Shown: in pieces, positions 7,722 through 47,485 of the stretch
Layout: each line of letters begins with the position of its first letter
How positions within the stretch are numbered: the first letter of the stretch is position 1
Source of the DNA: Escherichia phage tuinn
Strand: one strand, 5' to 3'
Sequence record: MN850606.1
DNA: 50,505 bases
Program-made: the position numbers and the translations under genes
Notes under the pieces: model-generated
What the model was told of the DNA's origin: nothing
Database searches by the model: none
Seen by the model: only the letters and a program-made list of their open reading frames with translations

Positions 7722-7741
7722 TTTAGCAAAAAGTGCTATTT
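7722..7741 (-). promoter_or_regulatory. conserved motif copy, upstream of lipoprotein gene
   Basis: TTTAGCAAAAAGTGCTATTT on + strand; TATAGT on minus strand at 7697..7702. Confidence 0.6.
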
Positions 7742-8000
7742 GTTATTTTTTGTTTTCCGGTGTTATCGAATTTAAGACGGCGTAAATTTAGCGCAAAATT
7801 TAGACAACATAAGATCAATAAACAATCAATAAAATAGATATATACATATAAAATCAATAGTTTATTTATTTATGTATGTATATTTGTTTTTTCTTGTTAT
7901 CTGCGTTTCTTGTGGTTTTGGTTGTTTGTGGTGATTTTTCTTTCTGAGTATCTGTATGTGCCATCATTCATGTGTATGTATATAATCCGGCGTATCTGAG
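7741..8000 (+). repeat. non-coding regulatory region, copy A of a duplicated element
   Basis: Shares TTTTCCGGTGT, TTATTTATTTAT, GT-rich tract and GTATGTATATAATCCGGCG with 28436..28665. Confidence 0.55.
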
Positions 8001-8108
8001 AGAGCATGGGAACAAGAAAAATAACACACATTAATCATTAACTTATGAGTCAAATCTGTTTTCTTGCCATCTGAGAACGTTTAGAAAACAGAAAAAACAA
8101 AACAGCTA

Positions 8109-8136
8109 TTGACTAAATCAACCAAATGGCTACAAT
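8109..8136 (+). promoter_or_regulatory. sigma70-like promoter of recombination operon
   Basis: TTGACT, 16-nt spacer, TACAAT. Confidence 0.55.
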
Positions 8137-8166
8137 GCACGCATAAAGCAACAAGGAGCATTAAAG

Positions 8167-9222
8167 ATGAGTGATTTTAACGCCTACACTAGCGAAGAAA
8201 TGAGCAACGAGCTTTATCATGATCCTAACGCGTGGACGGCTGAATATGTCAGCGGTTCCAGCCTAGCGGAGATTTACAGCACTTGCCCGGCGTACTGGAA
8301 GTACAAGCCGCGCCAGGAAACTAAAGCACTTGTTTTCGGTACGCAGTCGCATACCAACTTTGAAAGCAAGGAGCTATTCGAAAAAACATATCGCCGCGCA
8401 CCGTCGCAGGATGATTTTAAAGATCTGATCACTAGTCAAACGGCGTTAGCATCAAAGCTGAAATCTTTTGGCCTGAAAGGTACAACGGGCAAACAATACC
8501 CTGAATTACTGGAAATGCTGTACAAGTGCGGCGAGGATCTCAATGTGTGGTGGCTTATCGAAATGATGGCAGAATGCCAGGCCGCAGCGGACGGAGTGCA
8601 GTTAATAGACGCTAAAGATTATGATGCCTGTGTAGCGATGCGGCGCGTACTTGAGGCCATACCGGAGCATAACGCTTGCATGAACAGCCCAACCGCGCAG
8701 CGTGAAATGTCAATATTTGGGATCATCAACGGCGTAAAAGTAAAAGTGCGTCTTGATCACGTTGACGTAAACAAGGATGTAAAGGCAACAATCATTAACG
8801 GTTACGACGAAGAAGGCAGGCCGATTTATGAAGAAGTCACCTATCCAGAAGCGGTGATTATCACTGACTACAAAACAACGGTTAGCGCAAATCCGGTTGA
8901 CTTCCAGCGCCTGGCTTACAATCACGGCTATTATCTTAAAATGGCTTTGCAACATGACTTATTCAAAAAGGCTTATCCAGACGAGGAAAGGCCAGTAATT
9001 GTAAGATTGCTTGCGCAGGAGAAGAAAGAGCCTTACTTGCCGCTTGCTTTCCGCATGAATATTGAGCAATTGAAGATCGGGCGCATCCAGTACATGAGCG
9101 TGATCAACAAGTTCAACGTTTGCCAGCAGTTAGACGAATGGCCTTCGTATGCAAACGGGCAACCGGAAATTGATCTTGATACTCCTGATTGGGTTCGTGC
9201 TCAATTCAGGCATTATCTTTGA
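8167..9222 (+). CDS. PD-(D/E)XK family recombination exonuclease
   Basis: RLDHVDV ... ITDYKT nuclease-like motifs; sits upstream of Erf and SSB. Confidence 0.55.
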   Translation: MSDFNAYTSEEMSNELYHDPNAWTAEYVSGSSLAEIYSTCPAYWKYKPRQETKALVFGTQSHTNFESKELFEKTYRRAPSQDDFKDLITSQTALASKLKSFGLKGTTGKQYPELLEMLYKCGEDLNVWWLIEMMAECQAAADGVQLIDAKDYDACVAMRRVLEAIPEHNACMNSPTAQREMSIFGIINGVKVKVRLDHVDVNKDVKATIINGYDEEGRPIYEEVTYPEAVIITDYKTTVSANPVDFQRLAYNHGYYLKMALQHDLFKKAYPDEERPVIVRLLAQEKKEPYLPLAFRMNIEQLKIGRIQYMSVINKFNVCQQLDEWPSYANGQPEIDLDTPDWVRAQFRHYL

Positions 9223-9297
9223 TAAACTAAACAAATAGCTAAACTTTTATAATGGTTGGTGATATAATTCGCCAACCAGATAACGGGAGAATGAGAA

Positions 9298-9555
9298 ATG
9301 ACAGACAAAGACAATGCCACATTATTGCATTTAGAACGATTCATTGATCGAGTAACCATTGCAATGAAAGAATTTATTAAGCCGATGAACATTAAAGAGT
9401 CGGAAGAAATGAAGACTTACATCAAGGACGTGGTTGCATCCATTGACAACGTTATCCTTGTTGCAACGATGAGCAAGGGAAACAAAGAGCGCGAGAGGTT
9501 GGTTGCTGAATCAACAGAAGAATTTATTAAAATGCTTGAAAGCGAGAAGGAATAA
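9298..9555 (+). CDS. hypothetical protein
   Basis: ORF between exonuclease and Erf; upstream AAATAGC + TATAAT + hairpin (9234..9277). Confidence 0.4.
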   Translation: MTDKDNATLLHLERFIDRVTIAMKEFIKPMNIKESEEMKTYIKDVVASIDNVILVATMSKGNKERERLVAESTEEFIKMLESEKE

Positions 9556-9558
9556 GAA

Positions 9559-45540: not shown

Positions 45541-45911
45541 ACTACAATGAGATTGCAAGAATGGCTACTGCTGGGATTAACTTTTTCAGCGACGCTAACG
45601 GTATGTTTAAGTGCATCACGCAGCAGGGAGGGGTTGAGATTATCGGCGGAGAGGAAGTTACCAAGCCTGAGATTTCAGTGATGATAAAGGGGCTTGTTAG
45701 ATCTCCGAGGACTAGAGAGGTTGACGGTGAAACGATCCGAGTAACCGACAAGTTGGGGGTATTCACCAATGAAACTGAGATCAAAAATGGTTATCAGATT
45801 GAAATTGATGGCGATCGTTATGTTGTCGTTGAAGCAAGACCAGTCAGACAGACTAACATCACGGCAGCTTATCGTCCGATATTAAGGAGGATTGCAGTGC
45901 ATGGCGGATAA
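45537..45911 (+). CDS. head-tail joining protein
   Basis: ATGA overlap; synteny. Confidence 0.45.
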
Positions 45912-46344
45912 TTATAAGATCAGGGAATTTCACGGTGATATAAGCAGGTGGATTGATTCAGTAAGCAGCGGCCTTGTTGATTGCGTTGAAATGTTCGCGA
46001 CAAACGTCCACGAGGATCTTGTAAAGCGTTCGCCAGTTGATACGGGCCGATATAAAGCTAACTGGCAGGTAACAGCAAACAAGCCGCCGCTATATGCTCT
46101 CAATCAATACGATCGCGATGGTAGTAAAACCATTGCAGAAGGCAAGCGAGCAATATATGCAATCATGCTGGGCGGTGGCGCGGTGCGGTCAATCTATTTT
46201 TCAAACATGCTTATTTACGCCAATGCGCTTGAATACGGGCATTCAAAACAAGCGCCGTCCGGCGTGCTGGGAATCGTGGCGGTAAAGCTGCGATCCTATA
46301 TGACTAAGGCAATAAAGGATTCGAGGGCAAAAAATGCACTATGA
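45901..46344 (+). CDS. tail component (HK97 gp10-like)
   Basis: AAGGAGG RBS; DTGRYKANW motif region. Confidence 0.45.
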   Translation: MADNYKIREFHGDISRWIDSVSSGLVDCVEMFATNVHEDLVKRSPVDTGRYKANWQVTANKPPLYALNQYDRDGSKTIAEGKRAIYAIMLGGGAVRSIYFSNMLIYANALEYGHSKQAPSGVLGIVAVKLRSYMTKAIKDSRAKNAL

Positions 46345-46735
46345 TTTAATGTTAGCGGCAAGAAAGGCGCTGGCGGCGGAATATGAATCACGATTCAAGA
46401 TCGCCTATGAAAACGTTGATTTTGTTCCGCCTGGTGATGGTTCGATGTGGTTAAAATTTGACTACATGGAAGCCGACACAGATCGCATATCTCTTGATAG
46501 AAAATGCGTTTCTTATATCGGATTGGTTCAGGTTGGAATTGTTATGCCTCCTGGCGGCGGCACTGATAAAGCGCGTTTGCTGGCTAAAGAGATTGCGAGA
46601 TTTTTCTATGATGGTAGAATGTTTGAAACTGGCTATATTAGCGATGGGGCAAAGGTCCACACATTACTAAAAAGTGAAACAGGTTGGTTCTTACCGATCC
46701 GTTTCAGTGTTAGGCTTGACACAAAGGAGGAATAA
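46334..46735 (+). CDS. tail completion / terminator protein
   Basis: Position immediately upstream of major tail protein. Confidence 0.45.
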   Translation: MHYDLMLAARKALAAEYESRFKIAYENVDFVPPGDGSMWLKFDYMEADTDRISLDRKCVSYIGLVQVGIVMPPGGGTDKARLLAKEIARFFYDGRMFETGYISDGAKVHTLLKSETGWFLPIRFSVRLDTKEE

Positions 46736-46737
46736 TC

Positions 46738-47400
46738 ATGCACTTGCCTAATGGTTCTCAAATTTTCATCGGCGTTAATATGGGTGAGCCAATTAGCGCG
46801 ACTCAAATCAGCAATGCTGATAATCCTGTTTTTACAACCGAAAACACTCAAAGCATCAAAAAAGGCGCTTATGTTCTTATTGAAACATCTTCTTGGGGCA
46901 AACTTGTTAGTCGAGTGCTTCGAGTTAAGGAAGTATCAGATAATGCAAGTGTTACTCTTGAGGGTGTTAGCACTAAAGATACAAACGTATTTCCAGAAGG
47001 ACAGAACACAGCAACTTTCCGAGAAGTGAAATCTTGGGTAGAGGTTCCTTGCGTACAGGATCTTGCGCAGGACGGCGGCGAGCAACAGTATTACACTTAT
47101 CAGTGTTTGGCTGATGACCATGAGCAGCAGTTGCCGACCTACAAGAGCGCGGTTTCTCTTACCTACACTTTCGCTCATGAATATGATAACCCGATTTATC
47201 CGATCTTGCGCGAGGCTGAGGAATCCGGCGACGTAACCGCTTTGCGTATGTACGTGCCGAAAGCTAAAGAGATGCGTTGCTGGGCTGGCGTATTGTCTTT
47301 TAATGACATTCCGCAAACAACTATGAACGAAATGGAAACTGTTTCCCTTTCTGTATCTATGAAAGGCCGATTCACGTTCTTACCTTCCGACGTTAAGTAA
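46738..47400 (+). CDS. major tail protein
   Basis: AAGGAGG RBS; 220 aa; followed by strong terminator and then the G/GT chaperone. Confidence 0.65.
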   Translation: MHLPNGSQIFIGVNMGEPISATQISNADNPVFTTENTQSIKKGAYVLIETSSWGKLVSRVLRVKEVSDNASVTLEGVSTKDTNVFPEGQNTATFREVKSWVEVPCVQDLAQDGGEQQYYTYQCLADDHEQQLPTYKSAVSLTYTFAHEYDNPIYPILREAEESGDVTALRMYVPKAKEMRCWAGVLSFNDIPQTTMNEMETVSLSVSMKGRFTFLPSDVK

Positions 47401-47405
47401 AACAA

Positions 47406-47426
47406 GGGGCGTTGCGCCCCTTTTTT
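47406..47426 (+). terminator. rho-independent terminator after major tail gene
   Basis: GGGGCG-TTG-CGCCCC plus T6. Confidence 0.75.
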
Positions 47427-47466
47427 CATTCCTGTAAAATCAATCTATCAAATAAATTAATTCCAC

Positions 47467-47485
47467 TTTTAACAAAAAGTGCTAT
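47467..47485 (-). promoter_or_regulatory. conserved motif copy fused to RBS of tail chaperone gene (inverted)
   Basis: TTTTAACAAAAAGTGCTAT followed by AAGGAG and ATG 47500. Confidence 0.6.

Follow-up and report, generated by a model that had tools for sequence, protein, structure and literature searches.

A promoter-linked intergenic repeat in Escherichia phage tuinn and its candidate Cro-like reader

The genome of Escherichia phage tuinn (sequence record MN850606.1; the whole stretch of 50,505 nucleotides is called the window below) carries 18 intergenic copies of a motif of about 20 bp, which is very probably a promoter-linked recognition element. Judged from its sequence context, the motif is non-random and marks the main early and middle promoters of this phage, a class for which it would serve as the upstream recognition element. 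We lean, with some reserve, towards the fuller statement that these are activator-dependent promoters read by the Cro-like protein encoded at 14837..15313. The window is ~98.6% identical to Escherichia phages EC125, tonn, swan01 and related isolates (Drexlerviridae, Tempevirinae, Warwickvirus). The repeat itself is already known from sister phages: the same 21-nt intergenic direct repeat, with the consensus aaATAGCACnnnTTGnTAAAA, was published in 2024 for TLS, T1, Rtp and vB_EcoS_Rogue1 (PMC11447400) by authors who proposed stoperators, enhancer-binding sites or UP elements and posed its function as an unanswered question. The motif in the window is a member of this T1-like direct-repeat family (DR1-18 in TLS) and has every defining feature of it—the consensus, 18 intergenic copies, orientation with transcription, ~76 nt to start codons and the same T, G and A centre subtypes—with nothing essential different. 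The register with the -10 box, G at -14 and start site, the pseudo-palindrome, the putative regulator–helicase switch, the capsid-promoter copy and the association with homology breakpoints are not reported in that work.

At up to three mismatches the 22-mer AAATAGCACTTTTTGTTAAAAC finds 13 matches against 0.01 expected from dinucleotide-preserving shuffles, and the core AATAGCAC is found 14 times where 1.73 occurrences would be expected; with both strands searched, all 18 sites are recovered at up to six mismatches. Their positions agree within 2 nt with those listed by a first-pass annotation of the window, and the variants CACGAATTGC and CACTAATTGC that it placed at 32266, 33586 and 39084 are there. 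Its remark that the motif often swallows the stop codon of the upstream gene is borne out at about 12 copies, inside which an open reading frame (ORF) ends (at 17817, 18884, 22142, 24304, 24978, 26900, 29552, 30769, 32271, 33591, 34902 and 39089), the stop being either the TAG of ATAGCAC or a TAA in the leading As. Fourteen of the 18 copies are directed at the adjacent downstream gene and show the succession of -10-like hexamer, ribosome-binding site (RBS) and ATG that the annotation had described: the hexamer follows after 17-19 nt (18 nt for 11 copies), the RBS comes after it, and 70-100 nt, with a median of ~78, separate the motif start from the start codon. The orientation along the coding strand holds for these 14 copies; it had been missed that three others, 13761(+), 43710(-) and 47466(-), are antisense to their neighbours, as DR7 of TLS is. 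The proposal of a promoter class likewise gains from the strict register with a sigma-70-type -10 described below, and does not extend to the copies at 13761, 39084, 43710 and 47466, which are not ordinary promoters of neighbouring genes.

The annotation had suggested that the motif be sought in related T1-like genomes, and it is present in all of those scanned. Together with the window we covered T1, Rtp, TLS, Rogue1, KP36 and Vc1, a set spanning five subfamilies or genera, and observe that the motif is almost invariant in sequence and occurs in 16-24 copies per genome; in IMG/VR, only contigs of 41-52 kb contain it in multiple copies. With the A of ATAGCAC numbered as position 1, a position matrix of 107 copies (at most two mismatches, six genomes) has an information content of 1.3-2.0 bits at positions 1-7, 11-13 and 15-18, around a variable A/T-rich centre at positions 8-10; the bases G4, C5, C7 and G13 are found in 99-107 of the 107 copies. 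The spacer that follows carries no information, its sequences being unrelated between copies, and conserved letters return at G37 (81/107), T39 (74), A40 (88), T44 (89), C50 (63) and A51 (80). These correspond to a sigma-70 -10 box, TAtaaT, with G at -14 and T at -15 (46/107) before it and a CA start site 7 nt downstream. Among 122 copies from all seven genomes, the best -10 begins at position 39 in 89 and at positions 38-40 in 106, has A2 and T6 in 114, and is accompanied by G at -14 in 84. Relative to the start site, which is predicted and not measured, the motif spans approximately -50 to -32. A -35 element matching at four or more of six positions at a distance of 16-18 bp exists in only 16 of the 122 copies, so the sequence evidence supports the earlier view that the conserved block occupies the place of a missing -35. 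The TTGnTA inside the motif was considered as a true -35 and rejected, since in essentially all copies 22 bp separate it from the -10, too long a spacer for sigma-70.

What kind of promoter could be built in this way? The motif holds a pseudo-palindrome, TAGCA-N5-TG(C/T)TA, with its centre at motif position 9, or about -42, and half-site centres 10 bp apart. Positions T2/A16, A3/T15, C5/G13 and A6/T12 form complementary pairs, joined by G4/C14 in about half of the copies; the perfect half-site TGCTA accompanies the centres GAA, TAA and AAA, while the TTT centre tolerates TGTTA. Class II activator sites occupy the same place: lambda cI at OR2/PRM is centred at -42, CRP and FNR at -41.5, and the controller C proteins of restriction–modification (R-M) systems are of this kind as well. 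In their inferred working the motif promoters most resemble class II activator-dependent sigma-70 promoters, by analogy of a pseudo-palindrome of ~20 bp that overlaps the -35 region with its centre at about -42 from the predicted start, a good -10 with a poor or absent -35, and a candidate reader with the all-alpha helix-turn-helix (HTH) fold of Cro/cI, which would also repress its own gene. They differ from known class II promoters in that a single site type would serve ~14 promoters of a virulent phage, as a promoter-specificity element, and in the marked asymmetry of the site outside its 5-bp half-sites.

A standard copy may be described as a cassette of ~76 nt, in which the motif with the upstream stop codon is followed by a GC-rich hairpin, G-14 and the -10 box, the putative CA start, a short A/C-rich leader, the RBS and the start codon. 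The 33 nt past the motif have a mean minimum free energy (MFE) of -8.7 kcal/mol against -3.9 kcal/mol in control 33-mers, and 63% of them, compared with 20% of controls, reach -6 kcal/mol or below. Stem sequences differ from copy to copy, so that structure and not sequence is conserved. Two clusters of stem 3' ends are seen, one at position 39, immediately 5' of the -10, and one at 50-54, the predicted start. A transcript begun in the cassette would thus lack the 5' arm, and only transcripts from upstream would include the whole hairpin; lying upstream of the start or straddling it, the hairpins would act on incoming transcripts alone. They probably end or stabilize these transcripts, insulating each unit, and several are annotated as terminators in the T1 record. 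Downstream of the start, the leaders of the cassettes (e.g. 18934-18959, 22095-22065 and 26849-26825) share A/C-rich stretches of the cATCGAAACGAA / cATCAACAACAAACGAGGA type that run into the RBS. A second leader word, ACCAATCAGGAG, recurs, and AACCAATCAG is found 9 times in Vc1; the shared leader sequences may represent a translational enhancer or a processing site.

The window also has canonical sigma-70 promoters, and their distribution is informative. A perfect TTGACA-16-TATAAT (12/12) without motif at 28760..28787 (+) precedes the first rightward early gene, 28816..29280; TTGACT-16-TACAAT, again without motif, lies at 8109..8136 (+) before recE (8167); and TTAAAA-16-TATAAT / TTTAAA-17-TATAAT (10/12) at 15364..15392 (-) is the predicted promoter of the Cro-like regulator. 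By their position these promoters stand exactly where immediate-early expression would be needed. They occupy the same places as P01, P51 and P57, respectively, of TLS, the only three sigma-70 promoters found in that phage (PMC11447400, Table S1).

The regulator is a 158-aa Cro/cI-like HTH protein (14837..15313, minus strand; PHROG 2856, ‘transcriptional regulator’), which the annotation had offered as a possible binding factor and which is, by the sequence evidence, the best candidate reader. It is present in every genome compared, at 52-63% identity, and has weak Pfam matches to YdaS and P22_Cro and Cro-like matches in PDB over residues 53-92. Its AlphaFold model (pLDDT 86.5) is structurally closest to the Cro proteins of Xfaso, N15 and P22; the amino-terminal domain (NTD) of lambda cI in complex with sigma region 4 and R-M controller proteins are also among the matches. 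Homologues are confined to contigs of Drexlerviridae size, and a search for distant homologues outside Drexlerviridae found none. In six of the seven genomes the -35/-10 promoter of the regulator scores 9-11 of 12, its -10 overlaps, on the opposite strand, the -10 of the divergent helicase motif promoter, and the helicase motif falls at about +14 to +36 of the regulator leader, adjoining the regulator RBS. In the window this motif, at 15323..15344 (+), belongs to the type I promoter of the ATP-dependent helicase gene (15401), with the -10 TATTAT at 15363-15368, and lies inside the 5' leader of the divergent regulator gene. The sequence of the region reads as a switch, in which the helicase direction would be favoured and the regulator's own promoter blocked. 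The most conserved part of the regulator is a disordered basic N-terminal segment, IDKRTINGNNGTRRGKDKKxRKR (residues 11-35), not the HTH; 9-10 residues of it are invariant across the family. The conserved C-terminal domain, GFRASFCRPDLxFDxNGKP..RC, has no fold match.

A different use of the motif is seen at the major capsid gene (43776). Its plus-strand sigma-70 promoter is TTGCAC-16-TATCAT, and the reversed motif at 43710..43731 (-) exactly forms the 16-bp spacer together with a TG-extended -10. The same design recurs in T1 (TTGACG-16-TATTAT) and in TLS and Vc1 (TTGAAC-16-TATATT), the regions being 43706-43775 (+) in the window, ~15060-15139 in T1, ~15015-15071 in TLS and ~5700-5773 in Vc1. 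A protein on this site, centred at about -18, would be expected to block the capsid promoter. A terminator hairpin comes directly after the promoter, and the predicted start site is inside its 5' arm; from this layout, upstream transcripts would terminate here and the promoter's own transcripts would escape.

The motif copies also coincide with boundaries at which close relatives differ. Of 16 homology breakpoints against tonn, five fall within 80 bp of motif copies where 0.93 would be expected (P = 0.002), and four are within 11 bp of the motif, at 29547, 29568, 30764 and 32266; against FritzSarasin, four of 18 breakpoints lie at motif copies (P = 0.017). The cassettes are thus shown to coincide with indel boundaries between close relatives. 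Three type I cassettes on the plus strand are involved: 29547..29568 (start codon 29647), an exact breakpoint against both tonn and FritzSarasin; 30764..30785 (start 30839; -10 TATAAT at 30803-30808), a breakpoint against tonn; and 32266..32287 with a GAA centre (start 32344; -10 TATAGT at 32307-32312), a breakpoint against both. Small-ORF insertions or replacements relative to tonn at 29547-29568, 30533-30764 and 32050-32266 are bounded exactly by motif copies, and a tonn-only segment of ~440 bp has the motif on either side. Composite terminator–promoter cassettes known as PeSL and PmSL mediate modular shuffling in T4-like phages (PMC4122927, PMC2839356). The present cassettes are like PeSL in combining a repeated stem–loop, promoter and Shine–Dalgarno (SD) sequence at the borders of variable small ORFs, in association with indels between close relatives. 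The PeSL stem–loop lies upstream of an ordinary -35/-10 promoter, whereas here the hairpin is enclosed by the box and the -10, or extends across the -10, in a promoter devoid of a -35; because the order of parts differs, the likeness is one of analogy and not of homology.

How might these elements work together? We hypothesize that unmodified host polymerase makes the regulator from its canonical promoter, and that the regulator then switches on ~14 motif promoters while shutting off its own overlapping one. At the motif promoters, host sigma-70 RNA polymerase would read the -10 box; since no -35 hexamer is available at working distance, the polymerase would be recruited by the motif-bound protein in the class II style of CRP, FNR or lambda cI at PRM. 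The repeated cassettes may double as recombination joints for the exchange of gene modules.

Several observations weigh against this explanation. The base-contact positions of helix 3 in the regulator, Q75, N79, Q80 and K83, vary within the family, and vary strongly in Vc1; covariation between regulator and motif was looked for with this most divergent member available, in which the motif is unchanged. Invariance is found instead in the N-terminal arm (D14, K15, R16, N19-G20-N21-N22-G23, R26, D29 and R33), in R84 and in the C-terminal domain, so that recognition would have to proceed through the N-terminal arm or R84/Q76, or else through another factor. The first promoter of the leftward early cluster (28185..28206 on the minus strand; start 28125, -10 TACATT at 28166-28161) also bears the motif, which would make the leftward early genes delayed-early. 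The Cro-like protein could equally be a repressor, and the fixed spacing of the cassette could partly reflect common descent, a point countered by the unrelated spacer sequences. No transcript 5'-end, expression or DNA-binding data for any T1-like phage were found in the searchable literature, and start sites and activation are for this reason inferred from sequence alone.

The notion that host RNA polymerase reads these promoters unaided, with the motif as an unusual UP-like or -35-substituting element and the Cro-like protein as a later repressor in the manner of lambda Cro, appears unlikely to us. In its favour, the -10 boxes are near consensus and often preceded by TG or G at -15/-14; A and T prevail in the motif at -43..-39 and -35..-32; and the invariance of the motif beside a varying regulator helix would be natural if it were read by an invariant host polymerase. 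Moreover, the closest structural relatives of the regulator are Cro repressors, the motif occupies repressing positions downstream of the regulator start and in the capsid-promoter spacer, and UP elements and stoperators are ideas raised by the TLS authors (PMC11447400). Yet UP elements, the sites of the alpha-subunit C-terminal domain (alpha-CTD), are A/T tracts at -40 to -60 that lack invariant G or C and work jointly with a -35 hexamer, and an assignment to them is rejected on account of the near-invariant G4, C5, C7 and G13 and the absent -35. TTGnTA is too far from the -10 for sigma-70, and the phage uses strong -35 hexamers where host polymerase alone clearly serves. An operator, for its part, needs no strict register of ±1 bp with a -10 across 122 copies with unrelated spacers. 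Decidedly less likely is a reader other than the Cro-like protein, either a small early protein or a sigma-remodelling pair of the MotA/AsiA kind, with the Cro-like protein otherwise employed. Small proteins without assigned function at 22263..22658, 24522..24908, 35906..36157, 36413..36694 and 19108..19371 are conserved in all genomes compared, and the variable recognition helix of the regulator would be accounted for; sequence searches of Pfam, PHROGs and PDB, however, showed neither a DNA-binding nor a sigma-related domain in these candidates, and only the regulator has a conserved genetic linkage to a motif copy. The right half of the motif, TTTTGCTAAA, does resemble, by eye, the MotA box (wwwTGCTTyA), and like T4 middle promoters the motif promoters have a phage-specific box, here with a similar TGCT core, in place of the -35 upstream of a sigma-70 -10. 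The analogy to the MotA box drawn in the annotation nevertheless breaks down over the geometry: a MotA box has its centre near -30 and is separated from the -10 by 11-13 bp (PMC4122927 and established knowledge), whereas the centre of the motif is near -42 and its end is 19 bp upstream of the -10 (18 bp for the annotation's 22-mer). No Pfam or PHROG match to MotA or AsiA was found in the 11 proteins scanned.

Very unlikely, in our estimation, is a primary role as a recombination or module-boundary sequence, or as a transcription roadblock (‘stoperator’), with secondary promoter-like surroundings. The breakpoints at motif copies and the PeSL precedent speak for the former, but it leaves unexplained the strict orientation, the register with -10 and CA, and the near-absence of other promoters for these genes. 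As roadblocks, the motif copies share with the stoperators of mycobacteriophage L5 their number, asymmetry, orientation with transcription and location in short intergenic gaps, and four reversed copies adjoin RBSs, where a bound protein would block elongation. The L5 sites, at which the repressor of a temperate phage acts as a roadblock, are placed independently of promoter elements, in contrast to the 106 of 122 motif copies in register with a -10. Individual sites, namely the RBS-adjoining reversed copies at 13761 and 47466 and the copy in the regulator leader, could by their placement still act as roadblocks. Scarcely credible is binding of a host transcription factor such as Lrp, despite the agreement of TAGCACTTTTTGCTA with the E. 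coli Lrp consensus from the literature, yAGhAwATTwTdCTr, at 13 of 15 positions by eye (12 of 15 for the TGTTA variant) and although a host factor would account for an unchanging motif in phages that infect different enterobacteria. That consensus does not include the invariant C7 and A17-A19, and TGTTA, the commonest variant, fits it less well. We downgraded this explanation in view of a published Keio screen with another phage, LL5 (>90% identical to TLS), in which only genes of the lipopolysaccharide (LPS) core, tolC, secB and ppiB were required and neither lrp nor any other non-essential regulator appeared. Two further sigma factors were considered and rejected. Sigma-54 elements, TGGCAC-N5-TTGC, carry GG at -24 and, with a spacing of exactly 10 bp, GC at -12; the motif, TAGCAC-N3-TTGC, has AG for GG and a spacing 2 bp short, and is followed by a sigma-70 -10. 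The CCCCAT past the -10 that might suggest sigma-32 is no more than the 3' arm in one type of hairpin, with no CTTGAA at the right distance.

T1-like phages, which rank with the most common coliphages and Klebsiella phages, are classic contaminants in the laboratory and potential therapeutic agents; to our knowledge their transcription programme has never been worked out. A promoter class as such will not surprise a T1 specialist. The question posed for the repeat becomes directly testable, however, once it is reduced to a single protein, a 21-bp box and the constant 19 bp between box and -10. If true, the activator explanation would let promoters be mapped in hundreds of sequenced Drexlerviridae genomes that lack such a map, offer synthetic biology a compact orthogonal activator/promoter pair, and help to explain the shuffling of small early genes among relatives. 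A doubtful extension is that one Cro/cI-like protein acts both as a promoter-specificity factor throughout Drexlerviridae and as a replication-counting timer of the early-to-late transition. From -42, this protein would activate the ~14 promoters lacking a -35, and it would also occupy the spacer and extended -10 of the capsid promoter and the RBS-adjoining sites of late genes. Limiting its own synthesis and titrated by replication, at ~20 sites per genome copy, it would let the early promoters go down and release the late capsid promoter—an early-to-late switch, if true, without a new sigma factor or polymerase.

The other copies in the window are mostly type I cassettes. On the minus strand, 7720..7741 is directed at the leftward cor/membrane-protein genes (start codon 7671), with a 17-nt spacer, the -10 TATAGT at 7702-7697 and a predicted start at ~7690; 22126..22147 precedes a small leftward gene (start ~22064; -10 TATATT at 22107-22102); 24288..24309, a TTGACA variant, belongs to the DNA helicase gene 22655..24235 (-10 TAAAAT at 24269-24264); and TGG stands before the -10 at both 24962..24983 (start 24908; CATAAT at 24943-24938) and 26880..26901 (start 26824; TATAGT at 26861-26856). 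Plus-strand cassettes with the -10 CATAAT are found at 17812..17833 for the Dam methylase gene (17897), with the hexamer at 17852-17857 and a spacer hairpin of -12.1 kcal/mol, and at 18882..18903 (start 18960; hexamer at 18922-18927), with a hairpin of -14.1 kcal/mol. Further to the right lie 33586..33607 with a GAA centre (start 33662; -10 TATAAT at 33626-33631) and 34900..34921 (start 34978; TGG, then TAAAGT at 34940-34945).

Among the copies with other surroundings, 13761..13782 (+) has no -10 at standard spacing, is opposed to its neighbours and adjoins the RBS of the tail-fibre gene 11769..13769 (-); on sequence grounds it looks like a binding site only. The atypical copy 39084..39105 (+), with a TAA centre, lies between terL and the portal gene and has TATAAT only 4 nt past the motif, which places its centre at about -28; after the TATAAT come a terminator hairpin at 39117-39138 and the portal RBS. 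The copy at 47466..47487 (-) is antisense to the flanking late genes and adjoins the RBS of the tape-measure chaperone gene (47500). Read along its own strand, it shows the type I layout, with TGA-TAGATT after 18 nt and a terminator-like hairpin ~40 nt on, and a counterpart of this arrangement exists in T1 at 18832(-). The predicted promoter at 47395-47487 (-) thus meets a GC hairpin and T-run after ~40 nt, likewise in T1 (18770-18850, -), and could yield a very short RNA, either antisense or non-coding, across from the end of the major-tail gene.

The annotation had also pointed to two degenerate relatives. The one at 28556..28572 (CAGTGCTTTTTGTTG) has merely a weak resemblance to the motif. 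The other, 9234..9255 (+), looks like an internally deleted copy, AAATAGC^TAAAC, with ~9 bp missing; TATAAT is kept 18 nt downstream and is spanned by a hairpin, and TLS has an intact copy (DR9) at the equivalent position. This cassette (9234-9290, +), which comes after recE, could serve as a natural knock-out of the motif, in which expression of the gene downstream might be compared with that in other phages.

Inside the 3' end of the primase gene, a near-consensus TTGACA-17-GATAAT is present at 13931-13903 (-). It is followed by a strong terminator at 13836-13819 (-), the reversed motif and the tail-fibre RBS, an order of promoter, terminator and gene (13819-13931, -) that would require read-through. 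The divergent early clusters are separated by a non-coding gap of ~550 bp (28207-28759) with A/T-rich stretches, TATATA repeats, GT-rich runs (GGTGTGGTTGTGTGTGGG) and a direct repeat GCGGATTGC (28620, 28650), which may be an origin or a packaging/terminal-repeat region.

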